This document shows positions 6,765 to 59,130 of a DNA stretch of 64,000 nucleotides, piece after piece. Every line of letters begins with the position of its first letter. Position 1 is the stretch's first letter. The stretch is from Candidatus Poriferisodalaceae bacterium (GTDB taxonomy: Bacteria; Actinomycetota; Acidimicrobiia; Acidimicrobiales; Poriferisodalaceae), in assembly GCA_965205925.1 (NCBI GenBank), contig OZ242183.1, positions 1,148,641-1,212,640 of the forward strand, in the 5' to 3' direction. The position numbers and the translations under genes were made by a program. The notes under the pieces were generated by a model. That model worked only from the letters and a program-made list of their open reading frames with translations, was not told the DNA's origin and did no database searches.

Positions 6765-8372
6765 TTAGCCCCATGCGCGAGCGAGAGCTCGCGGTAGCTC
6801 CTCAATCCACTGAATCAGATCGTGACCGCACACTCGTTCGGTCCAGTGATGCGGTGATTTTGCAAAATGCAGCCACGCGGCCCATGCATGAGTGGCGTCA
6901 AAAAATGCACCCTCTAAGGTGCCCGCACACAGATGCACAAATGGAGCCTTGTCCGCTTCCCAGCCCATCTGGTCGTTCGGCGGCAAGCCAGTGGAGTATG
7001 CGATGCAATGCCCGTATCGTTCGCGGTTCATGTGCCCGGTCGCCAATGCATGTCCGCCACCGTCGGAGCAGCCAAACACGGCTCGTTTGCCTCGTTCGTC
7101 TGATACGCCGAAACTGTCTTGCGCCCATTGCGCTAGCTCGTTCACAAAGAACTGTTGATGGCGGTCGAAACGTTTGTTATCGAAGCCCGGTAGGTATTCC
7201 AAGGCGCGTTCATTGCTGTAGGCGCTCATTGGTGCGGCATGCGCGGCTACCAACACAAATCGCGGAACACTTTGATCGACAATGCCGGCGTCGATGCGAC
7301 GGATATATGGTCTAACTCCGTTTCCGTCGGTTGCGTAAAGCACCGGAAGTTTTTCGCTGGGTTGATGTTCGGGCGGCAAATAGACCGTTACCAGACGGTT
7401 TTCACGCAGTTCAGTGCTTGACAGTGCCTCGGTGATGACCGTTCCGCGAAGCTGGTTGTCTGGCGTGGAATTGAGCTCGACCGGTGCATCTGGGCCACGG
7501 AAGCGATGATCAACGGGGCCTCGCATACCACCACCAGCTAACCCACCAAATTCGTCAATCTCCCAAAACCCGTAACCAATGACAGCTTCACTAAGTCGTT
7601 CTACTTGCACAGTTAGTGCCCACAACTGCTCTCCACCATCTGGATTTGTAAGGCGGTTTGTATTGGTGGAGTTATTGGTGGAGTCAGACACTCTCCACAA
7701 CGGCAGCTCAAACACCGGTCCCGCAATCAATCCATAACGGCTGTTTGCTTTACAGGCAAACGTCAGCTCGTCGCCATCGGCCCAGGCTCCTTGCGGATGT
7801 TCGGCCAGTTTGCCTTGGAGCCAATCCGGGCTGGGATCGTGCCACACACGCGCAAAGCGTTGCCCCGTAGGCAACTTGCCTTCGTTTGTACTGGTTCCGT
7901 TCACAACCCCTGCGCGTTTGCGAGCTGCATCTTCATTGCGCTGTTGAATTTGTGCTTGCAGTTGATCCAGCGTCGGCACACCCAACTGTGCGCGCATGTC
8001 GTCGTTTATGGATTTATCAATTGGCGCCAACATCTGATCGCCTTGATGCTGAGTAGTTACGGTGCCAAAGCTTTGAGGTTGACCGCTCATGAGGTTCACG
8101 CGGTCTACACACTCGGCAAACAACACACCCGCGCCTGAAATCGACTCCCGATGCGCCTTCGCAGCTAGCTCAGCGGCCTTGGGCAGGGTTTGCGCGGGAC
8201 CATGAACTGCTAACGCACGTGCGGCTCGCAACGCAGTTGCGCCTGTCGTGGCGTCCAGACCGTCCGCTACAGCAAGTTGCCTTGCCAGCAGTGCGACCGT
8301 GTGAGGTTCTTCGTCACTGTCCGGTGAAGCAGCGGATTCCAATGCTGTCAACAGCTGATTTATCTCACTCAT
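6765..8372 (-). CDS. Esterase-family protein (enterochelin-esterase/esterase-D-like C-terminal domain) with about 170 aa of unassigned N-terminal sequence
   Basis: C-terminal LPVLYATDGNG...RAVFGCSDGGGHAL (GxSxG-like) and a preceding Ig-like esterase N-domain region (DELTFACKAN...LWALTVQVERL). The N-terminal part has no motif I recognise. Confidence 0.6.
   Translation of the reverse strand: MSEINQLLTALESAASPDSDEEPHTVALLARQLAVADGLDATTGATALRAARALAVHGPAQTLPKAAELAAKAHRESISGAGVLFAECVDRVNLMSGQPQSFGTVTTQHQGDQMLAPIDKSINDDMRAQLGVPTLDQLQAQIQQRNEDAARKRAGVVNGTSTNEGKLPTGQRFARVWHDPSPDWLQGKLAEHPQGAWADGDELTFACKANSRYGLIAGPVFELPLWRVSDSTNNSTNTNRLTNPDGGEQLWALTVQVERLSEAVIGYGFWEIDEFGGLAGGGMRGPVDHRFRGPDAPVELNSTPDNQLRGTVITEALSSTELRENRLVTVYLPPEHQPSEKLPVLYATDGNGVRPYIRRIDAGIVDQSVPRFVLVAAHAAPMSAYSNERALEYLPGFDNKRFDRHQQFFVNELAQWAQDSFGVSDERGKRAVFGCSDGGGHALATGHMNRERYGHCIAYSTGLPPNDQMGWEADKAPFVHLCAGTLEGAFFDATHAWAAWLHFAKSPHHWTERVCGHDLIQWIEELPRALARAWG
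7662..7685. repeat. 12-nt tandem duplication inside the esterase gene
   Basis: ATTGGTGGAGTT / ATTGGTGGAGTC are adjacent and encode STNNSTNT on the minus strand. Confidence 0.8.
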
Positions 8373-32900: not shown

Positions 32901-34031
32901 ATGTTCGGCGTCTATCTTCATGTGCCGTTCTGCACATCTCGTTGTGATTACTGCGCTTTTGCGACCTGGACCGATCGGGAGCATCTCGTTCATGAGTACA
33001 TGGCGGCTTGCAAGCAACATGCCGCAGCACTAACGGATTCGCTACCTCAGATCACTTCCGTGTTTGTCGGAGGGGGCACACCAAATTTGGTTCCGCCTGC
33101 CGCGGTGCTGGACGTGCTGCGTGAGTTCAAGCTCACCTCAAACGCTGAGACGACGGTGGAGTGCAATCCGGATTTGGTTACCACTGAACAGATGAACGAG
33201 TTTGCAGCTGGAGGGGTAAATCGCATCAGCTTGGGAGTTCAGTCGATGGTGCCCGAAGTGTTGCAGGCCTTGGGGCGTGAGCATGATCCAGCAATGGTTT
33301 ACAAATCAGTCGAGAGTGTGCGATCGGCAGGCATTGCGCAACTGAACTTGGATCTCATTTTTGGAGGTAGCGGTGAATCAATGGACGATTGGTTGCAGAC
33401 TCTGTCGAAGACTGTTGAGCTGAGCCCTGATCACATCAGCACCTATGGTCTGACCGTTGAGCCTGGAACTCTCTTGGCAGATGATGCAGCGCGCCATCCC
33501 GACGACGATGATCAGGCCGAAAAATACCTAGCAGCCGACGAGGTGCTTAGCAGTGCTGGCTATGAGAACTATGAGATTTCCAACTGGGCTAAGCCTGGTA
33601 GCCGTTGCCAGCACAATCTGCTGTATTGGACACAGAGCGAGTACATCGGAATAGGTGCAGCCGCTCACAGCCATCGTGGTGGTTGTCGTTGGTGGAATGT
33701 GCGCACTCCGGAGCGCTACATCGAGGCGGTCGCTAGCGAAGCACCTGGTGGAGTAATCGGGGGAGTAATTGGTGGAGTAATCGGTGAGGCATCTGGTGGA
33801 GTTATCGGTGGAGTAATCGTGGCTGGTAGTGAGCAACTAAATGAAACTGAGCGACGTGTTGAGAGGCTTCAGTTGGAGATTCGCACTTGCGAAGGGATAG
33901 CGACCCAAGACACTCCGTGCAACCTTGCACCCGAAGTTGCCGAGCTGTTGGAGGCTGGCGTTGATGGCCGTACTCGGCTGACAAAACGTGGCAGATTGTT
34001 AGCCAATGAGGTAGCACTGCATTTTGAGTGA
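32901..34031 (+). CDS. hemW: Radical SAM heme chaperone HemW (HemN-like, oxygen-independent coproporphyrinogen oxidase family)
   Basis: YLHVPFCTSRCDYCAF (CxxxCxxC), GGGTP, and an HemN_C-like tail. It contains a (GGVI)n insertion. Confidence 0.85.
   Translation: MFGVYLHVPFCTSRCDYCAFATWTDREHLVHEYMAACKQHAAALTDSLPQITSVFVGGGTPNLVPPAAVLDVLREFKLTSNAETTVECNPDLVTTEQMNEFAAGGVNRISLGVQSMVPEVLQALGREHDPAMVYKSVESVRSAGIAQLNLDLIFGGSGESMDDWLQTLSKTVELSPDHISTYGLTVEPGTLLADDAARHPDDDDQAEKYLAADEVLSSAGYENYEISNWAKPGSRCQHNLLYWTQSEYIGIGAAAHSHRGGCRWWNVRTPERYIEAVASEAPGGVIGGVIGGVIGEASGGVIGGVIVAGSEQLNETERRVERLQLEIRTCEGIATQDTPCNLAPEVAELLEAGVDGRTRLTKRGRLLANEVALHFE
33747..33819. repeat. In-frame 12-nt tandem repeat (GGTGGAGTAATC-like, 3 + 2 copies) inside hemW
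   Basis: Encodes GGVIGGVIGGVIGEASGGVIGGVIV. Confidence 0.85.
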
Positions 34032-50683: not shown

Positions 50684-53662
50684 ATGGTTACTACTTCACC
50701 TGCCAGCGTTTCCGTTGAAACCGCGCTTGGTTCCCTAGGGCTAAAGCACCACTTCACGCGCCCAGGGAAAGATCCTTACGACTCCGTTCGTTGGGGTTTG
50801 CGAGACGCAAAAATCACTAACCATCAGGACGGCTCGATTGTCTTTCATCAAGAAGACGTCGAGTTCCCACAGAGTTGGAGCGTCACCGCGGCCAACATCG
50901 TGACGCAGAAATATTTTCGCGGAACGCTCGGCACACCTGAACGCGAACACTCCCTACGACAAGTGATCGACCGTGTCGTCAACACCATTAAGCAGTGGGG
51001 GATTGACGATGGCTACTTCGACGAAGACGAGAGCGTGATCTTTGCCGCCGAATTGCGATGGCTGCTACTACACCAGCGAGTTGCGTTCAACAGTCCGGTT
51101 TGGTTCAACATTGGTGTGCCCGATGTGTCTCAACAAGCTTCGGCTTGTTTCATCTTGGCAGTCGAAGATCGCATGGAGTCGATCCTCAACTGGTACGTAG
51201 AAGAGGGTCGTATCTTCAAGGGTGGATCGGGGGCGGGCATCAACCTGTCGGACATCCGTGGCTCTCAGGAAAAAATAGAGGGCGGTGGTGAAGCCAGCGG
51301 CCCTGTCAGTTTCATGCGAGGAGCTGATGCATCAGCAGGCACCATTCGCAGTGGAGGAAAAACTCGTCGTGCCGCCAAGATGGTTTTGCTGGACATTGAT
51401 CATCCCGATGTTGAGGCGTTCATCTGGTGTAAGGCGCGCGAGGAGCGTAAGGCTCGCTCGCTAGCACAGGCAGGGTTTGACATGAGCCTCGACGGCGAGG
51501 ACATCTTCTCAGTGCAGTACCAAAACGCAAACAACTCGGTGCGTTTATCTGACGAATTCATGGCCAGCGTGGAAGCTGGCGACACTTGGGATTTGAAGGC
51601 ACGCACTACTGGCCTACCTCTCAAGACCTTGCCTGCGCGCGATCTGTTCAGTCAGATTGCAGCGGCGGCCTGGGAATGTGCTGATCCTGGTGTTCATTTC
51701 TCTAGCACCATTAACAGCTGGCACACCGCCCCCAACACCGGGCCTATCACTGCTAGCAACCCATGCAGCGAATACCTGCATCTAGACAACTCAGCTTGCA
51801 ACCTGGCCAGCATCAACCTATTGCCGTTTGCAGGCAAGCCAGCCGACCCCGAGTCGGCTAGTACAGCGCCGATCTTCGACGTCGCAGGTTTTGAATCTGC
51901 GGTACGCGTTACGTTTGTGGCGCAAGACATTCTTGTTGGTCGAGCGGACTATCCAACACCGAAGATTGCTGAAACCTCCCATCGTTTTCGACAGCTCGGG
52001 TTGGGTTACACCAACTTGGGAGCGTTACTGATGTCGTTTGGCGTCCCATATGACTCCGCACAGGGGCGCAACCTGGCTGCAGCTGTGACGGCTTCTCTGT
52101 GCGGTCAGGCCTACGCAACTTCGGCTGATCTAGCGGCCCGTTTAGGGCCGTTCGAAGGTCTGGCTGAAAACGACGAACCAATGGTTGCCGTTCTACGGCA
52201 ACATCAAGCTGCGCTGGGTCGCATTGACACCAAACAGCTCGACTTAGCGCAGGCTGGTGTTGATCAGACCGATACAGCGGTAACTACTGATCTACTGGAT
52301 TCGGCTAAGCGAAGCTGGCAGCATGCAGTAGAAGGATGTGTAAGCCACGGAGTTCGTAACTCTCAAGCAACCGTTATCGCACCTACCGGCACAATCTCGT
52401 TCATGATGGATTGCGATACCACCGGCATCGAGCCAGACCTTGGTCTGGTGAAGTACAAGAAGCTGGTGGGTGGTGGCGACCTCACGATCATTAACCAAAC
52501 ACTGGTTTCAGCGCTAGCGCGCTTGGGTTATGACTCACAGCAAATAACAGACATCGAAGCGCACGTGCTTGAGCACGGCAGCATCATCAACGCACCAGAT
52601 CTGTCGCCTGAGCATCTACCAGTGTTTGCATGCGCCATAGGCGAAGGTGCGATTAGCCCAGAGGGACACATTCAGATGATGGCAGTCTGTCAGCCGTTCA
52701 TTTCTGGAGCCATTTCAAAAACTGTAAATCTGCCGGAATCAACCTCGGTAGCCGACATAGAAGATCTGCTGATGCTGTCCTGGCGCAGAGGTCTGAAATC
52801 GGTTGCGATCTATCGCGATAACTGCAAAGTGGCCCAGCCGCTATCGACTGGCGCAACTACTTCAACCACTTCAACTACTTCAACCACTTCAGCCGGTTCG
52901 GCCGAAGCATTAGAGCCGGTTGTCGAAGCAGGCTCATCTGTGGTGTCCACCATTGCCGCACGCGTTAGCGCTGCCAGCGCTACGCCTTCGCGTGAGCGAA
53001 TGCCTCGCACACGTACGTCACGCACCTTGTCGTTTCGAGTTGCCGACTGTCATGGCTATATGACCGTGGGTGAATTCGCCGATGGCCGCCCTGGGGAAAT
53101 ATTTCTCACTGTTGCTAAACAGGGCTCCACGTTGGCCGGAATAATGGATTCTTTGGCTATTTCTGTTAGCCACGGCTTGCAATATGGGGTGCCATTACGT
53201 TCTTACGTTGAAGCATTTGTGAATGCGCGTTTCGAACCAGCCGGCATAACCGATGATCCGCAAATTCGTATAGCGAGCAGTCTCGTTGACTACATATTCA
53301 GGCGGTTAGCTCTTGAGTACCTGCCTTTTGATGAGCGCCGCGACCTTGGGGTGCTTTCAGTGGATGAACGTTCCGAACCAAACCTGCCAGGCTTGGAGAC
53401 AGCGATGGTGGAGACATCGATTGGTGCTGAGATAGCACTAGATCCACTGCAAGACGTTGGATTGGCATACGGAAATGGCGGCCAAAACGGCACGACAAAT
53501 GAATACAAGTCAACGGTCGTGCAACAGGCTTTGCCGGTGAGAGCTCCGGCGAGCTTGGTTAGCTCTGACGCACCCTTGTGTATGAGCTGCGGGGATCAGA
53601 TGTTGCGAGCGGGCTCATGCTTTGCTTGCCCTTCCTGTGGAACTACTAGCGGTTGCGGTTAA
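50684..53662 (+). CDS. nrdJ: Adenosylcobalamin-dependent ribonucleotide reductase, class II
   Basis: 992 aa with NPCSEY (active-site Cys/Glu region), TISFMMDCDTTGIEP, and a C-terminal CxxC...CxxC zinc finger (CMSCGDQ..CFACPSCG). Confidence 0.9.
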   Translation: MVTTSPASVSVETALGSLGLKHHFTRPGKDPYDSVRWGLRDAKITNHQDGSIVFHQEDVEFPQSWSVTAANIVTQKYFRGTLGTPEREHSLRQVIDRVVNTIKQWGIDDGYFDEDESVIFAAELRWLLLHQRVAFNSPVWFNIGVPDVSQQASACFILAVEDRMESILNWYVEEGRIFKGGSGAGINLSDIRGSQEKIEGGGEASGPVSFMRGADASAGTIRSGGKTRRAAKMVLLDIDHPDVEAFIWCKAREERKARSLAQAGFDMSLDGEDIFSVQYQNANNSVRLSDEFMASVEAGDTWDLKARTTGLPLKTLPARDLFSQIAAAAWECADPGVHFSSTINSWHTAPNTGPITASNPCSEYLHLDNSACNLASINLLPFAGKPADPESASTAPIFDVAGFESAVRVTFVAQDILVGRADYPTPKIAETSHRFRQLGLGYTNLGALLMSFGVPYDSAQGRNLAAAVTASLCGQAYATSADLAARLGPFEGLAENDEPMVAVLRQHQAALGRIDTKQLDLAQAGVDQTDTAVTTDLLDSAKRSWQHAVEGCVSHGVRNSQATVIAPTGTISFMMDCDTTGIEPDLGLVKYKKLVGGGDLTIINQTLVSALARLGYDSQQITDIEAHVLEHGSIINAPDLSPEHLPVFACAIGEGAISPEGHIQMMAVCQPFISGAISKTVNLPESTSVADIEDLLMLSWRRGLKSVAIYRDNCKVAQPLSTGATTSTTSTTSTTSAGSAEALEPVVEAGSSVVSTIAARVSAASATPSRERMPRTRTSRTLSFRVADCHGYMTVGEFADGRPGEIFLTVAKQGSTLAGIMDSLAISVSHGLQYGVPLRSYVEAFVNARFEPAGITDDPQIRIASSLVDYIFRRLALEYLPFDERRDLGVLSVDERSEPNLPGLETAMVETSIGAEIALDPLQDVGLAYGNGGQNGTTNEYKSTVVQQALPVRAPASLVSSDAPLCMSCGDQMLRAGSCFACPSCGTTSGCG
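52856..52891. repeat. In-frame 9-nt tandem repeat (A[C/A]... ACTACTTCA/ACCACTTCA x4) inside nrdJ
   Basis: Encodes TTSTTSTTSTTS in the linker before the C-terminal domain. Confidence 0.85.
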
Positions 53663-55900
53663 CCCGATTGGACAACAACCAGAATCGCATTGGTCTGGTC
53701 GCGCGCCAAGCTCTCCCATAGCGGGGCGATCGTTTCGCAGGCTGGCTGCCTCTTCGATTAGGTCAACCAGACCACCCACAAACAATGGATGAGTGCCGAC
53801 GGTTTTTGCTCGAACCATCGTTAGGTGATTGCGTGCAGCGATCGTGCGAGCCACTGTGTCGAGGTCGTGCACTACCTCCATGTGGTCGGCTACGAATCCC
53901 AATGGCACGACCAAGACGCCGGTATTGACGATTGCTTCCTTGTCTGCACCGATGGCTAGCTGAACGAGCCGGTCTCCGATATCGGGTTCAAGCCAAGGAG
54001 TGGATGCATGACCACTGCGGCTTTGGTAGGCAACCTCATATGGTCCGGTTAGTTCGGCTAGTTCTGCCACCGCTTTGGCCGCGTCTTGTAGCTGTCTCTC
54101 GTAGTCGCATTCCGCAGCCATCGATAAAGGCAGACTGTGGGCGGTGAAGATCGTGGGAGCATCTGATGACAGCTCCGCGCCACGGCGAGCTTCAACCACT
54201 CGTTGCGCCATAGCGCCGATAAAGCCTGGATGATTGTGGAACACTCGAACTCGCGTAACAGCTGGAGCGACATTGAGTTCTGCGCTGGCTATTGCTATGT
54301 CTTCGTGGTATTGCCGGCAGCCTGAGTAGGAGCTAAATGCGGAAGTAACAATGCAAACAGCGTTGGTGTGCTGGTTGGCAGCCATTTCAGTCATGGTCTT
54401 AGCCAGGAATGGGTACCAGTTGCGATTACCCAGATAAACCGGCACGTCATAGCCGCGCTGGTTGAGCGTTTCGCGTAAGGCTTCAACTAGTGCGCGATTG
54501 TGTCGTCCGATTGGGCTAACCCCGCCGTGGCGCAAATATTGTGCTGCAACCTTGGCCAGTCGTTGTGCGGGCACGTCTCGACCTTGAGTGACATTTTCTA
54601 AGAAAGGTGTTACATCATCGGGACCTTCGGGACCACCGAACGAGAGCAGTAAGACCGAGTCGAAGTCACCGATTTTGGTAATTGGTGCCGTGCCGCTACC
54701 GACTATTGCCGCGGGCTTATGGCGTCGACTCAATATCTCTGCCAGTAACAAAACTGGCAGAGTTGCTACCGAGATCCACAAGGCTGTCTCGATTACCGTG
54801 TTGTAGCCGCGTTGATCAATCAATTCGCCCGCTATTGGCGGACCGATTAATCCACCAAAAGCTGCTGCGGTATATAGAGCACCTAAGACTCCGCCTAAGC
54901 CGACCGGCCCAAACATTTGCGCTGCTACGGCCGGAGATAAGGCAATAAAGCCGCCGTAACCCACTCCGATAACCATCGTAAATATCACCAGTTGCCCAAA
55001 GTTGCCGTCGGCATATAGCCAGATCAAAAAGCTGCCAGCGAGGATGGCGAACGCAAGCTGGTACAGGCGCATCAATGAAAGCTGCGCTCCGAGTGCACCG
55101 AACCCCAGCCGCCCGACGATGCTCGCAGCACCAATAAGACCGATCAATAACGCTCCCCGTTCGGATCCGTATCCCTCCAGGTAGTCGTCCAAGTAAACGA
55201 ACGGGACGAACAGAGAAAGAGTCAGCAAAAAGGCTGCGACATACAACATAAAGAAGCGGCCATTGGAGATGAGTTTCCAAAGAGTTGGCAGAGGCCCAGG
55301 GTTTGCTGAGGCTGGTGGCCGTTTTGCACCGAAGCTTGCGATCACTAACAATGCGCCAGCGACTATGGCGATTATCACGTAGCCGGTGCGCCAGCCGTAT
55401 GCGTTGATTAGTGCTTTAGAGCTTGGCGCTCCGATCAGGGTTCCTAGTCCAATGCCTGCTACCGCTACACCTAAGGCGGATGAACGGTGTTTCTCAAACC
55501 AGGCGCCAACCACTGCAACCATCGGCACGTAAGCACATGCCACACCAATGCCTACTCCCGTGCCGTAGGTGATGTAGCCGATCCAAATCTCGGTAACCCG
55601 AGAGGTGATTAACAAGGAAGCCACCAGCACTGCGGCCCCAAACAGCAGTACCGGTCGCGGTCCAAAACGGTCGGCCAACCGTCCGGTGATTACACCGAGC
55701 ATGAAATAAACGAATGTGGTGATGGCAAACAGCAGTGCTACTTCGCTGTTGCTTACCCCAAATTCTTCACGTATTGCCGTGAAAAAAGCTCCAAAGCTGT
55801 AAGTCACGCCAAATACGGCGAAAGTTGACAGCATGGTGGCGAACACCACTACCCATCCGGCCGCGCTGTCGACACGATGCGATGCTGGTGAACTATTCAC
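53615..55900 (-). CDS. hemH: Fusion protein: N-terminal 12-TM MFS transporter (OFA/MCT-like) + C-terminal ferrochelatase (HemH/CpfC type with Cys-rich tail)
   Basis: Residues 1 to about 400 are MFS (GRLADRFGPRP, about 12 TM). From ..DFDSVLLLSFGGPEGPDDVTPFLENV.. onward the sequence is ferrochelatase (TAHSLP, PWLEPD, C-terminal CDSGCCP). No stop and no ATG/GTG/TTG occurs in the 30-codon junction. Confidence 0.8.
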   Translation of the reverse strand: MNSSPASHRVDSAAGWVVVFATMLSTFAVFGVTYSFGAFFTAIREEFGVSNSEVALLFAITTFVYFMLGVITGRLADRFGPRPVLLFGAAVLVASLLITSRVTEIWIGYITYGTGVGIGVACAYVPMVAVVGAWFEKHRSSALGVAVAGIGLGTLIGAPSSKALINAYGWRTGYVIIAIVAGALLVIASFGAKRPPASANPGPLPTLWKLISNGRFFMLYVAAFLLTLSLFVPFVYLDDYLEGYGSERGALLIGLIGAASIVGRLGFGALGAQLSLMRLYQLAFAILAGSFLIWLYADGNFGQLVIFTMVIGVGYGGFIALSPAVAAQMFGPVGLGGVLGALYTAAAFGGLIGPPIAGELIDQRGYNTVIETALWISVATLPVLLLAEILSRRHKPAAIVGSGTAPITKIGDFDSVLLLSFGGPEGPDDVTPFLENVTQGRDVPAQRLAKVAAQYLRHGGVSPIGRHNRALVEALRETLNQRGYDVPVYLGNRNWYPFLAKTMTEMAANQHTNAVCIVTSAFSSYSGCRQYHEDIAIASAELNVAPAVTRVRVFHNHPGFIGAMAQRVVEARRGAELSSDAPTIFTAHSLPLSMAAECDYERQLQDAAKAVAELAELTGPYEVAYQSRSGHASTPWLEPDIGDRLVQLAIGADKEAIVNTGVLVVPLGFVADHMEVVHDLDTVARTIAARNHLTMVRAKTVGTHPLFVGGLVDLIEEAASLRNDRPAMGELGARPDQCDSGCCPIGLTATASSSTGRASKA

Positions 55901-55969
55901 AACGCTCCGCAGGGTAGTACTGGCCTAAAATCTTGACGGGTTCAGCTACAAAATTGAATAAAGGTAAAC

Positions 55970-56251
55970 ATGCGAGCCACTCTGAATAAGCAAACTGTGC
56001 AGACCCTTTCGACGGGCACGCAAGTCGACGAGAGAGTTGATAAATCCGAGAAGACCGTCAGCACCGGCGATGGTAGTGGTGACCACGACCGGTTTGCCCA
56101 CTACGTCAACAAGGTGGCACTAACCAAGTCGGCGCTAACGGGTAAGGCAGTGATTGCTCTTTGTGGCAAGAAGTGGGTACCAACGCGTGATGCTCAGAGG
56201 TATCCGGTGTGTCCGTCCTGTCGCGAAATCTACGAAAAGCTAGAGGCTTAG
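55970..56251 (+). CDS. DUF3039-like small actinobacterial protein
   Basis: DHDRFAHYV...AVIALCGKKWVPTRDAQRYPVCPSCREIYE matches my recollection of the DUF3039 pattern. Confidence 0.55.
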   Translation: MRATLNKQTVQTLSTGTQVDERVDKSEKTVSTGDGSGDHDRFAHYVNKVALTKSALTGKAVIALCGKKWVPTRDAQRYPVCPSCREIYEKLEA

Positions 56252-56706
56252 CTGGTTTTGCTGCCCGAAACCTTGAAGGTCAGGGTGGCTTTGGCAATGG
56301 TGTCGCCGAGCGCAGTCGTTACCGCAGCTTCGCAAAACACTATTGAGCGTCCTCGCTTAGTTACCCAGCCAGCCGCTAGCAGGTCGCCTTCGGTAGCGGC
56401 ACCTAGATATTGCACGTTCATGTTGATGGTGCTGTAAGGCTGAGATTGGGTAAAAGCACTACCGACCGCGGGCACGCAGGCGGTATCTAGCAAGGTAGCC
56501 AGCACGCCGCCATGCACCACTCCACCGGCTTGCTTTAGCTCTGGTGCGATTGAGAGCTCGAGTCGGCAGTAATCCAGTCGCACCTCGGCGACGGTGATGC
56601 CCACAAGGTTTACAAACAGTTTTTGTGATGCTCGCCCATATCGCCTCCAACGTTGCGCAACTTCACCTTGCAAAGGTTGAAACTGATTTGGGTCAGGCAG
56701 AGCCAC
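56248..56706 (-). CDS. PaaI-family hotdog thioesterase
   Basis: GGVVHGGVLATLLDTA and the size of about 150 aa. Confidence 0.75.
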   Translation of the reverse strand: MALPDPNQFQPLQGEVAQRWRRYGRASQKLFVNLVGITVAEVRLDYCRLELSIAPELKQAGGVVHGGVLATLLDTACVPAVGSAFTQSQPYSTINMNVQYLGAATEGDLLAAGWVTKRGRSIVFCEAAVTTALGDTIAKATLTFKVSGSKTS

Positions 56707-56796
56707 TCGTCTGAGGCTAGGCGCGAAGGTTTTGGTGTGTGATTGAGTTGCTGGCGTCGGTTAAGTCGACAACGGCAAGCATTACCGTCAAACCCG

Positions 56797-59130
56797 GTGT
56801 CTAGGCAAAACGATTTTCCGCAGCTAAGCGCACGCACACAGCGCTTCACGTTGGGAGTGCCTCGCAATTTCACGATTACCGAAGACGGTCGTCACGTTAT
56901 TTTTTTACGTAGCAAAGGACACATAGATCCGATTAACTGCCTCTGGCAGATTGAGGTAGACACCGGCATAGAGCGATTGCTAGTTGATCCGCAAGAGCTG
57001 TGGCTAGCCGAAGAGGGCGGCGGCTCTGTGGTTGCGAGCGCTGAGCTTGCTCGTCGTGAGCGTGCGCGAGAATCCGCGCGAGGCATTGTTGCTTACAGCA
57101 CGGACAGTTCAGGTCGTGTATTGACTTTTACCTTGGGTGGTGAGCTGTTTGTCGCTGACGCAACCAACGCTGGTGAGATTCGACGGATTGACCTGACCTC
57201 GTTAGGTGACGGAGAAGACAACGCACTCGAAGCCGGTGTCTTTGATCCCCGCCTGTCGCCGGATGCGCGTCATGTCAGTTTTGTGGTGGGCAACTCTTTG
57301 TGGGTAGCGCCTGCTGCTGGCCAAGGCTTGGGCTGGCAGTTGTTACCGGTTACTAGTAAGTCGATTACTAGTAAGCCGATTACTAGTAAGCAAGGCATGC
57401 AAACCGTCTCGTGGGGTAGTGCGGAGTTCATAGCGGCCGAAGAAATGGGTCGCAACCGCGGTCACTGGTGGAGCCCTGATAGCGACGCTTTGGCGGTGGC
57501 ACGAGTTGATGTTTCGTCCGTCCAGCAATGGCACATCGCCGATCCGGCTAACCCAGACAAAGCGCCGCGGGTAATCAGATATCCCGCCGCGGGCACAACC
57601 AACGCTCTAGTTGAGCTTTATGTGGTGAAAATGACTACTCAGCAGACACCTCTAAAGGTGAACTGGGACACGGAGGCTTTCCCGTATCTTTGTGATGTCA
57701 ACTGGTCAGGCGCTTTTGGACTGACTCTGGTGCTACAGAGTCGAGATCAACGTGAAATGCGAATCCTGCTTGCCGATCCAGACACGGGTGAAACAAGCAT
57801 GATTGCAATGATCACCGATCCAGATTGGGTTGAAATAGTGCCTGGAGCACCCGCACACAGCCCCATCGGCTTACTTACCGTTGGCGAACATCACGTCACA
57901 AACAGTTACGGCGGTACTCGTGCCATCGCTCTAAATGGCGAGCCCATCACTTCGCCTGATGAATGGGTGCGGGCAATAGTGGGTGTCAGTTGGTCGGATA
58001 CGAATGGTCCCAAACCAGACGGAACCTCGCGAGAGGTTTCGAATCGAGTTGAAGTTGCCTATCTGTCTTCAGAGACTCAAGACAATGCCGGTTTATGCAG
58101 CATTGCCTTACGCAGTGTGACAATAAGCGCGGACGATCCGCCAGTAACGCTCACTCAGCGCACAGAGCTGAGCCAGCCAAACGGTGCGGCAGTTACAACA
58201 GCATTTACCAAAGCCGGGATCTGTGTTGTTGGCGAAGCATCTTTAGAAGATCTCACAAGGTTCACACTTCGTGACGGTCAAGGCGCCGAGCAGACAATCA
58301 CCTCATACGGAGCGGACCCGTTCGAAGCTTTGGGTTACGACAACATGAGCAAACCTTGGCAAGTTGAGATGTGCGTTGCTGGCGACACGGAAGTGCCCGT
58401 CGCTATTCTTTGGCCGCAACAGCCTTCAAACATGCCACTGCCTATCTTGCTCGACCCATACGGTGGTCCGGGCGCACAGCGAGTGCTGAATGCGCGCAAT
58501 ATGTACGCGCAATCCCAATGGTTCGCGAATCAGGGATATTGCGTAGTGATTGCTGATGGGCGTGGCACTCCCGCGCGCGGCGGCAGTTGGAGAAAGGTCA
58601 TCAAAGGCGACCTCGCTCGGTGCGCTTTGCAAGACCAGCTCACCGCCTTAGATTTCGTTCTCAAGAAGCACGCCAAACGAGTAGATCACGAGGCCGTAGC
58701 CATCAGAGGGTGGTCGTTTGGCGGTTACCTGGCAGCACTAGCCGTATTGCGTTGCCCCGAGCGTTTTCATGCAGCCATCGCGGGAGCGCCGGTCACAGAT
58801 TGGGCGCTCTACGACACGCATTACACCGAGCGTTATCTCGGCGAACCGAAAAAGAAGCCGGAAAACTATCGTCGTTCATCACTGTTAGAAGATCGTCCGG
58901 AAATTCAACGGCCAATCATGCTTATCCATGGCATGGCCGATGACAACGTGGTTGCAGCGCATACGTTGCAACTATCCAGCGTCTTGCTAGCAGCAGGCCA
59001 CCCTCATGAAGTGTTGCCCCTGACAGGCGTAACGCACATGACTCCGCAGCCGGTAGTGGCAGAAAATTTGTTGCTTGCTCAGTCAAAGTTCTTACGTCGC
59101 CAACTAGCCTTGAGGTTAGATGGGAGTTAG
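56797..59130 (+). CDS. S9-family dipeptidyl aminopeptidase / prolyl oligopeptidase (DPP IV N-terminal propeller + peptidase domain)
   Basis: Propeller region (WSPDSDALAV, YPAAGTTNA), catalytic GWSFGGY, and late D and H residues (HGMADDNV, GVTHM). The start is uncertain; the ORF begins at TTG 56743 and I prefer GTG 56797. Confidence 0.8.
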   Translation: MSRQNDFPQLSARTQRFTLGVPRNFTITEDGRHVIFLRSKGHIDPINCLWQIEVDTGIERLLVDPQELWLAEEGGGSVVASAELARRERARESARGIVAYSTDSSGRVLTFTLGGELFVADATNAGEIRRIDLTSLGDGEDNALEAGVFDPRLSPDARHVSFVVGNSLWVAPAAGQGLGWQLLPVTSKSITSKPITSKQGMQTVSWGSAEFIAAEEMGRNRGHWWSPDSDALAVARVDVSSVQQWHIADPANPDKAPRVIRYPAAGTTNALVELYVVKMTTQQTPLKVNWDTEAFPYLCDVNWSGAFGLTLVLQSRDQREMRILLADPDTGETSMIAMITDPDWVEIVPGAPAHSPIGLLTVGEHHVTNSYGGTRAIALNGEPITSPDEWVRAIVGVSWSDTNGPKPDGTSREVSNRVEVAYLSSETQDNAGLCSIALRSVTISADDPPVTLTQRTELSQPNGAAVTTAFTKAGICVVGEASLEDLTRFTLRDGQGAEQTITSYGADPFEALGYDNMSKPWQVEMCVAGDTEVPVAILWPQQPSNMPLPILLDPYGGPGAQRVLNARNMYAQSQWFANQGYCVVIADGRGTPARGGSWRKVIKGDLARCALQDQLTALDFVLKKHAKRVDHEAVAIRGWSFGGYLAALAVLRCPERFHAAIAGAPVTDWALYDTHYTERYLGEPKKKPENYRRSSLLEDRPEIQRPIMLIHGMADDNVVAAHTLQLSSVLLAAGHPHEVLPLTGVTHMTPQPVVAENLLLAQSKFLRRQLALRLDGS
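57346..57390. repeat. In-frame 15-nt tandem repeat x3 inside the S9 peptidase gene
   Basis: CCGGTTACTAGTAAG / TCGATTACTAGTAAG / CCGATTACTAGTAAG, encoding PVTSKSITSKPITSK. Confidence 0.9.

Follow-up and report, generated by a model that had tools for sequence, protein, structure and literature searches.

A predicted transporter-anchored coproporphyrin ferrochelatase confined to one clade of Candidatus Poriferisodalaceae

Introduction

Coproporphyrin ferrochelatases (CpfCs, also HemH) are usually regarded as soluble stand-alone enzymes, and the known ones are roughly 310–450 amino acids (aa) long. Here, we describe a family of marine and sponge-associated actinobacteria that appears to rely on a membrane form of this enzyme that is built into a transporter. 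The gene in question lies in a 64,000-nucleotide stretch of DNA (hereafter, the window; GenBank assembly GCA_965205925.1, contig OZ242183.1, positions 1,148,641 to 1,212,640 of the forward strand) from a Candidatus Poriferisodalaceae bacterium (Acidimicrobiales), where a single 761-aa open reading frame (ORF) begins with an MFS transporter and continues into a ferrochelatase.

A survey of 482 ferrochelatases published in 2021 recorded the CpfC-ChdC fusion of Cutibacterium acnes (683 aa), the only fusion in that set, and the CAB-domain extension of the enzymes of cyanobacteria and plants (PMC8529089), in agreement with the initial annotation of the window, which had named HemQ/ChdC as the partner in known ferrochelatase fusions. 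The C. acnes protein is likewise a natural actinobacterial ferrochelatase fusion, but there the partner is the next enzyme of the pathway and is located at the C-terminus, whereas here the partner is an N-terminal transporter. The CAB-domain ferrochelatases, like the fusion described here, are covalently anchored to the membrane by an appended transmembrane (TM) segment, but the CAB anchor is a single C-terminal helix of the chlorophyll-binding type with an EXXNXR motif, attached to a protoporphyrin ferrochelatase, as opposed to a 12-TM transporter at the N-terminus of a CpfC (PMC8529089). By Pfam, the fusion ORF contains neither a ChdC domain (PF06778) nor a CAB domain; its C-terminus consists of a Cys-rich tail and 16 non-conserved residues. 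A conceptually similar arrangement is known from mitochondria, in which ferrochelatase forms a complex with mitoferrin, an SLC25 iron carrier, and the ABC protein ABCB10 and is thereby kept beside a transporter on the inner side of a membrane; this complex, however, is non-covalent, and its coupling to iron import is experimentally supported.

With actinobacterial CpfC/HemH, the enzyme half of the fusion shares the full catalytic domain, the invariant His and Glu residues, the internal Cys combined with a C-terminal Cys-rich tail, and the same pathway genes, but it makes up the C-terminal half of an integral membrane protein of 761 aa. The transporter half resembles SfMCT, a bacterial L-lactate/H+ transporter of the SLC16 type (PDB 6G9X, 6HCL; PMC6573034), and the human transporters MCT1, MCT2, MCT8, and MCT10, with which it shares the 12-TM MFS fold and a conserved carboxylate site, although it is only ~25% identical to SfMCT and carries a C-terminal enzyme. 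A search of the literature for an MFS-ferrochelatase fusion or for Poriferisodalis found nothing relevant. Besides the fusion with ChdC and the anchoring CAB helix, the protein adds a further architecture to those known for ferrochelatases.

A single reading frame encodes a transporter and a ferrochelatase

The features of the fusion gene are as follows.

53615..55900, minus strand: MFS-ferrochelatase fusion ORF, 761 aa, GTG start, TAA stop, delineated from the ORF list and both domain profiles
54725..55900, minus strand: MFS transporter domain, aa 1–392, with 12 TM helices, motif A between TM2 and TM3, and an SLC16/SfMCT-like carboxylate site (Y124, R264, Y315)
54665..54724, minus strand: linker, aa 393–412, basic and disordered, at 20 aa the shortest of all fusion homologs
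53666..54664, minus strand: predicted coproporphyrin ferrochelatase (CpfC/HemH) domain, aa 413–745, with invariant H588, H673, E675, and C528
53672..53689, minus strand: C-terminal Cys cluster C738-DSG-C742-C743, which together with C528 provides four candidate [2Fe-2S] ligands
53615..53665, minus strand: non-conserved C-terminal tail, aa 746–761, and stop codon; predicted local distance difference test (pLDDT) score below 50; overlaps the 3' end of nrdJ
55905..55908, minus strand: GGAG, a putative Shine-Dalgarno-like sequence 5–8 nt 5' of the GTG start, in the context ...GCGGAGCGTT directly followed by GTG
54731..54733, minus strand: in-frame TTG, codon 390 (the Leu of EILSRR), the sole conceivable internal start near the ferrochelatase domain

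Both halves are readily recognized by profile searches. The N-terminal half matches MFS_1 (PF07690) with 149 bits, and MFS_1_like over aa 27–366; the C-terminal half matches the Ferrochelatase family (PF00762) with 243.5 bits (cutoff 27) over aa 415–718, spanning profile positions 3–316 of 317, and the NCBIfam hemH model TIGR00109 with 132.1 bits, above the cutoff of 124.6. All the protein strings quoted in the initial annotation, including CDSGCCP, fall within this one ORF, so that the single-frame fusion proposed there is borne out. The GTG start at position 55900 is backed by the N-termini of the homologs, which share a conserved R-x-DSAAGW motif, and by the upstream GGAG. The automatic gene call (P0001, 739 aa) begins at the ATG of codon 23 (M23; window region 55835–55900) and thereby cuts into TM1.

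At the junction between the two domains, both alternative frames are closed. No in-frame ATG or GTG is present there, as originally claimed; the accompanying claim that TTG is absent as well does not hold, given that in-frame TTG codons occur at positions 374 and 384, inside TM12, and at position 390. None of the junction TTG codons is preceded by a Shine-Dalgarno-like sequence. A scan of the fusion gene for promoters and terminators, which is uninformative for an actinobacterium, yielded no promoter-like site and terminator-like matches at chance level. We infer that the ORF is expressed as one polypeptide with two working halves.

At its 3' end, the fusion gene overlaps the convergent nrdJ gene by 48 nt (window 53615–53662). 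The last 16 residues of the fusion are not conserved and probably represent mere read-through to the first stop codon; the homologs stop ~5 aa past the CCP motif.

The fusion is conserved within one clade

We searched 5.8 billion proteins for homologs of the fusion, counting these as clusters at 90% identity. More than 60 distinct clusters combine PF07690 and PF00762, with ~97% coverage and 53–81% identity to the protein from the window; those that are named carry the label "ferrochelatase" only and come from Candidatus Poriferisodalis, Acidimicrobiales, or Acidimicrobiaceae. In the genomes of four species of the genus g179, the fusion occupies one uninterrupted frame of 823–901 aa, and a complete Ca. 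Poriferisodalaceae chromosome contains a full-length copy that is 81% identical to the one in the window and is embedded in identical synteny. Taken together, the homologs are 53–84% identical, and their linkers are always in frame, range from ~20 to >100 aa, and are Ala/Pro/Thr-rich, low in complexity, and hypervariable. Because the in-frame fusion is conserved in more than 60 independent assemblies, an assembly artefact is very unlikely: the source genome is a single long contig, possibly derived from long reads, but the chance that a missing base at the junction merged two separate genes is negligible, given that many assemblies, with more than 60 independent clusters between them, have the fusion with differing linkers and that both other frames are closed across the junction.

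Independent fusions of the same kind were sought among the best 150 matches (scores down to ~208 bits) of 1.84 × 10^9 representative proteins. Among these matches, a single representative (P0018) has both domains and the others are single-domain with respect to this pair, so that no independent MFS-ferrochelatase fusion from outside the clade was found there. The long matches that might have passed for such fusions were rejected: they are CpfC-CgoX (P0186), TIR-MFS (P0210), or plain MFS proteins. The length of the open frame around hemH was likewise rejected as a proxy for fusion, because high-GC genomes give long frames by chance. Most ferrochelatases of the class lie in frames of 300–400 aa; the sampled hemH loci with long frames (L103–L108) have no MFS gene of the fused family within 6 kb, and the long frames around MFS matches L012–L014 contain no ferrochelatase.

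The fusion is, thus, confined to one clade within Candidatus Poriferisodalaceae, and a database comparison of the kind the initial annotation had called for shows the architecture to be rare and restricted to this family. The transporter-anchored CpfC is a real, clade-restricted, and previously undescribed form of a known enzyme, the evolutionary origin of which is well supported (see below).

The ferrochelatase half is the only predicted CpfC of the genome

The best solved relative of the enzyme half is 28wn_A, annotated as "Coproporphyrin III ferrochelatase" (E = 2.8e-66), and its predicted fold is closer to bacterial CpfCs (TM-score ~0.86) than to human FECH (~0.70). H588 in the motif FTAHSLP and H673 and E675 in the motif DHMEVV are invariant in 44 fusions, and H588 and E675 align with the respective motifs of solved CpfCs; in Bacillus subtilis, the catalytic His and Glu of the ferrochelatase family are H183 and E264.

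Four Cys residues, C528, C738, C742, and C743, are also invariant in 44 of the 44 fusions, which confirms the actinobacterial Cys-rich tail (CDSGCCP) noted at the outset. In [2Fe-2S] ferrochelatases, the pattern CX(1,11)CX(1,11)C near the C-terminus is complemented by a distant fourth Cys (PMC8529089). The tail of the fusion reads C-X3-C-C, with the last two Cys adjacent, and does not match the strict three-Cys pattern; among the ligands of the cluster in insertion-type ferrochelatases, adjacent Cys pairs do occur (PMC8529089). The enzyme half probably carries a putative [2Fe-2S] cluster, for which the four Cys would be the expected actinobacterial ligands.

The source genome is represented by a single 1.80-Mb contig that is 94% complete. 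No second ferrochelatase was detected elsewhere in this genome, which settles whether a stand-alone hemH exists beside the fusion. ChdC is encoded by a separate gene at genome position 685858–686373, ~0.5 Mb from the fusion, the genes for UroD and CgoX are adjacent to each other, and HemF was not found in the 94%-complete contig. Because no other ferrochelatase is present, ChdC, UroD, and CgoX are encoded, and HemF was not found, the fusion is predicted from these sequences to be the only CpfC in a complete coproporphyrin-dependent pathway.

Several observations on related ferrochelatases were made in passing. Acidimicrobiales hold two ferrochelatase types, with ~45–52% and only ~30% identity to the enzyme half from the window, respectively; the latter type, found in families f2, f3, and f4 (the divergent loci L104–L110 and L112), sits on a long separate branch of the tree. 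P0186 (835 aa) combines a ferrochelatase (aa 4–324, 47% identical to the enzyme half from the window) with an amine oxidase of the HemY/CgoX type (aa 382–823) and seems to join CpfC to CgoX, enzymes of successive steps of the pathway. Finally, hemW is located in the window at 32901–34031, as originally reported (TIGR00539, 251 bits, cutoff 205).

The transporter half resembles monocarboxylate carriers

The transporter half comprises 12 hydrophobic segments, with motif A, the MFS consensus of which is G-x-x-x-D-R/K-x-G-R-R/K, in loop 2, between TM2 and TM3. Lys and Arg residues number 15 on the inside compared to 6 on the outside, and because motif A and the linker are on the K/R-rich side, the half is predicted to adopt an N-in/C-in topology, with the enzyme domain in the cytoplasm; the earlier proposal of a cytoplasmic enzyme tethered to the membrane is, accordingly, in keeping with the segment count and the charge distribution. 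In the AlphaFold2 (AF2) model, this half forms 12 long helices (pLDDT ~90), and the nearest structures are those of SfMCT and human MCT8, MCT1, MCT2, and MCT10, with TM-scores of 0.80–0.88.

The initial assignment to the OFA/monocarboxylate type was apt inasmuch as the nearest NCBIfam models are those of the L-lactate transporter SfMCT, monocarboxylate transporters, and oxalate/formate antiporters. All the scores are nevertheless below the respective cutoffs: 158 bits for the L-lactate transporter equivalog NF049980 (cutoff 320), 95 bits for the OFA family TIGR00890 (cutoff 375), and 83 bits for OxlT, TIGR04259 (cutoff 335). In SfMCT, Y119 (TM4) and R280 (TM8) bind the carboxylate of the substrate, and Y331 and the proton-site residue D378 are functionally important (PMC6573034). 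These four residues correspond to Y124, R264, Y315, and D362 of the fusion, all of which, as well as motif A, are invariant in 44 fusions, whereas N276 and H250 of SfMCT are replaced by S260 and Y240, respectively, and the position of D257 is variable. Given these similarities, the transporter half is predicted to work like a carboxylate carrier of the MCT type, but it is not orthologous to SfMCT. Because the carboxylate-binding Tyr and Arg of SfMCT are retained, the most likely substrate appears to be a small carboxylic acid, probably moved together with a proton.

Outside the window, the source genome encodes two stand-alone MCT-like MFS paralogs that are 35–37% identical to the fused copy (G000:C1:426306-427424 and 864843-866009). 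In P0210 (612 aa), an N-terminal TIR domain (aa 13–129) is fused to an MFS transporter of the same family as the one in the window.

The fusion apparently originated by deletion between neighboring genes

The genes that surround the fusion in the window form a block that is conserved, in part, in related genomes.

50684..53662, plus strand: nrdJ, B12-dependent ribonucleotide reductase, the convergent downstream neighbor (NF005122, 1329 bits)
55970..56251, plus strand: DUF3039-like 93-aa gene, the divergent upstream neighbor (PF11238 at the same place in L095; 52–71% identity in L004, L008, L015, and L095)
56248..56706, minus strand: hotdog-fold (4HBT) thioesterase, part of the conserved block (TIGR00369)
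56743..59130, plus strand: S9/DPP-IV-type peptidase, part of the conserved block (PF00930 and PF00326 in L095; 46–68% identity)

Gene order in the window is S9 peptidase, 4HBT thioesterase, DUF3039, MFS-hemH, and nrdJ, and nrdJ adjoins the same locus in L005, L008, L015, and L095. In the marine lineage L095, where the two genes are unfused, the order is S9 peptidase, 4HBT thioesterase, DUF3039, MFS, cupin, orf104, hemH, TK, and nrdJ, with MFS and hemH transcribed in one direction and cupin, orf104, TK, and nrdJ in the opposite one. In another lineage with adjacent but unfused genes, G615, the spacer between MFS and hemH retains orf104 on the opposite strand (E = 2e-28) and lacks the cupin gene; in G711, TK and orf104 lie beside hemH, and there is no MFS gene nearby. 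The fused genomes have no cupin, orf104, or TK gene at this locus, and no remnants of cupin or orf104 were found in the linkers of the fusions, orf104 being kept only in the G615 spacer and near the hemH gene of G711.

In the tree of the hemH domain, all the fusions form one clade (support 98/93), the sister group of which (96/90) consists of marine L095 and G615, the lineages with adjacent but unfused genes; G227, G579, and G711, genera of this family in which the two genes are unlinked, fall outside this grouping. The MFS tree is less resolved, but by the approximately unbiased (AU) test, the fusions forming one clade is not rejected (p = 0.17).

Because L095 and the window share the block, the G615 spacer retains orf104, and the fusions have lost the genes in between, origin of the fusion by deletion between neighbors, rather than from an operon, is well supported. 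The fusion most probably has a single origin, in a common ancestor of part of Candidatus Poriferisodalaceae, in which the opposite-strand genes between the co-oriented MFS and hemH genes were deleted, with read-through producing the linker. Because opposite-strand genes lay between them, MFS and hemH would not have been co-transcribed before the fusion. The locus, then, offers a clean stepwise example of a fusion protein born by deletion between neighbors.

Two apparent reversals were considered. In G650, which is nested within the fusion clade, the MFS stop codon and the GTG start of hemH overlap as GTGA, in different frames (L008, 2690–2710); this split might be a genuine secondary fission, the two parts being translationally coupled, or might stem from a 1-nt indel in the assembly. 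A second candidate for natural fission, P0065, was rejected, being encoded on a contig with 2x coverage in which hemH itself is frameshifted.

The orf104 gene itself is a small gene (~104 aa, no Pfam match on record) that is a conserved neighbor of hemH in unfused relatives, with copies at 7799–8113 in L095, 2831–3070 in L004, and 7131–8197 in L102, where it occurs twice.

Both halves evolve under purifying selection

Comparison of the window with its closest relative gives ratios of nonsynonymous to synonymous substitution rates (dN/dS) of 0.11 (MFS half), 0.09 (enzyme half), and 0.51 (linker). The corresponding values within the genus g179 are 0.23–0.41, 0.16–0.18, and 0.44–0.69. Thus, both halves are maintained under purifying selection, whereas almost no constraint acts on the linker.

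The AF2 model of the complete fusion has a mean pLDDT of 86.7 and a predicted TM-score (pTM) of 0.56, with pLDDT below 50 at residues 396–404 and 746–761. We think that the two domains have no fixed interface and, presumably, no fixed substrate channel between them, because the linker ranges from 20 to >100 aa across the homologs, is of low complexity, and is disordered in the model, and because the pTM is 0.56.

Do the two halves work together?

Because the MFS half ends on the cytoplasmic side, a short disordered tether would suspend the enzyme from the transporter on the inner side of the membrane, where the enzyme would insert Fe2+ into coproporphyrin III supplied by CgoX and pass the resulting coproheme on to ChdC. 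We consider it fairly probable that the two halves function independently of each other on this loose tether, and that the fusion was kept as a harmless or mildly useful feature, which might provide for co-expression and for placement of the enzyme at the membrane. Two observations weigh against such independence. The fusion has persisted across a family-level radiation, with the identity between hemH domains down to ~57% and few or no reversions, and such persistence could reflect selection for the link itself; furthermore, in the lineage of the window, the tether has been cut to ~20 aa, bringing the enzyme near the cytoplasmic face of the transporter. Either way, the family provides a natural test case for whether membrane placement of the iron-insertion step matters.

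The strongest alternative, one that we regard as possible although unlikely, is functional coupling, whereby the MFS half would carry something that belongs to the ferrochelatase reaction, with the enzyme located at the mouth of the transporter and the fluxes matched. Surplus coproporphyrin III or coproheme might be exported under iron shortage, with the transporter serving as an overflow valve; alternatively, an iron-carboxylate or heme might be imported. Coupling would fit the retention of the fusion through a family-level radiation with both halves constrained, the short tether in the lineage of the window, and the fact that the MFS...hemH neighborhood is older than the fusion in this clade. 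The invariant carboxylate-binding Tyr/Arg pair is compatible with it as well, given that porphyrin substrates bear propionate carboxylates, and among the structural relatives of the transporter half, MCT8 and MCT10 carry large aromatic carboxylates. The binding pocket, however, is like that of carriers of small monocarboxylates, and linker length is unconstrained. The history of the locus also argues against coupling: opposite-strand genes separated MFS and hemH before the fusion, precluding co-transcription; the surrounding block is a mixture of unrelated housekeeping genes; and orthologs of the MFS half are common in Acidimicrobiales but usually unlinked to hemH. In other lineages, MFS genes were sought within 6 kb of hemH (79 loci, 0.92 Mb); the fused MFS family was found near hemH at 0 of the 79 loci, nor was it found within this distance of hemH in the other sampled families of Acidimicrobiales. 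Hence the suggestion made in the initial annotation, that metal insertion is coupled to transport of iron, coproporphyrin, or coproheme, was not refuted but gained no support from the opposite-strand genes, the hypervariable disordered linker, or the neighborhood survey. The case calls for caution against taking every "Rosetta stone" fusion as proof of shared function.

A more specific version of coupling, which we find doubtful, is that the transport function of the MFS half is tetrapyrrole-related. It might be the exporter by which actinobacteria excrete coproporphyrin III, or it might carry coproheme, heme, or an iron-carboxylate, and its covalent link to the sole CpfC would balance porphyrin against iron supply at the membrane. 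If so, the stand-alone MFS orthologs that are widespread in Acidimicrobiales would share this function; the family is in this respect a natural test case for a possible tie of an SLC16-like carrier to porphyrin or iron traffic.

It seems improbable that the fusion gene yields two proteins in practice, with a free HemH arising through an internal translation start, such as TTG390, or through cleavage of the linker, in which case the fusion would amount to promoter sharing only. The in-frame TTG390 lies 23 codons 5' of the ferrochelatase fold, and the linker is disordered and accessible to proteases, but no Shine-Dalgarno-like sequence precedes this codon, and the homologs differ in the residue at that position and in its context; the lack of a promoter-like site in the region points the same way, if weakly. 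The GTGA overlap in G650 is typical of translational coupling and suggests that the covalent link is dispensable, but it might result from a mere 1-nt assembly error, and the other apparent split, P0065, comes from the low-coverage contig with the frameshifted hemH.

Least plausible among the functional alternatives, and in our judgment highly improbable, is that the MFS half no longer transports anything and is merely a 12-helix membrane anchor: its faster evolution relative to the enzyme half in g179 (see the dN/dS values above) and the presence of two further paralogs in the genome would fit, but the dN/dS is well under 1, and Y124, R264, Y315, D362, and motif A are invariant in 44 of the 44 fusions, whereas a mere anchor needs no invariant substrate site.

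A neighbor of the fusion

The NrdJ protein encoded downstream of the fusion contains a short Thr/Ser repeat, TTSTTSTTSTTS (nrdJ region 52810–53025), which precedes its C-terminal Cys-rich tail.

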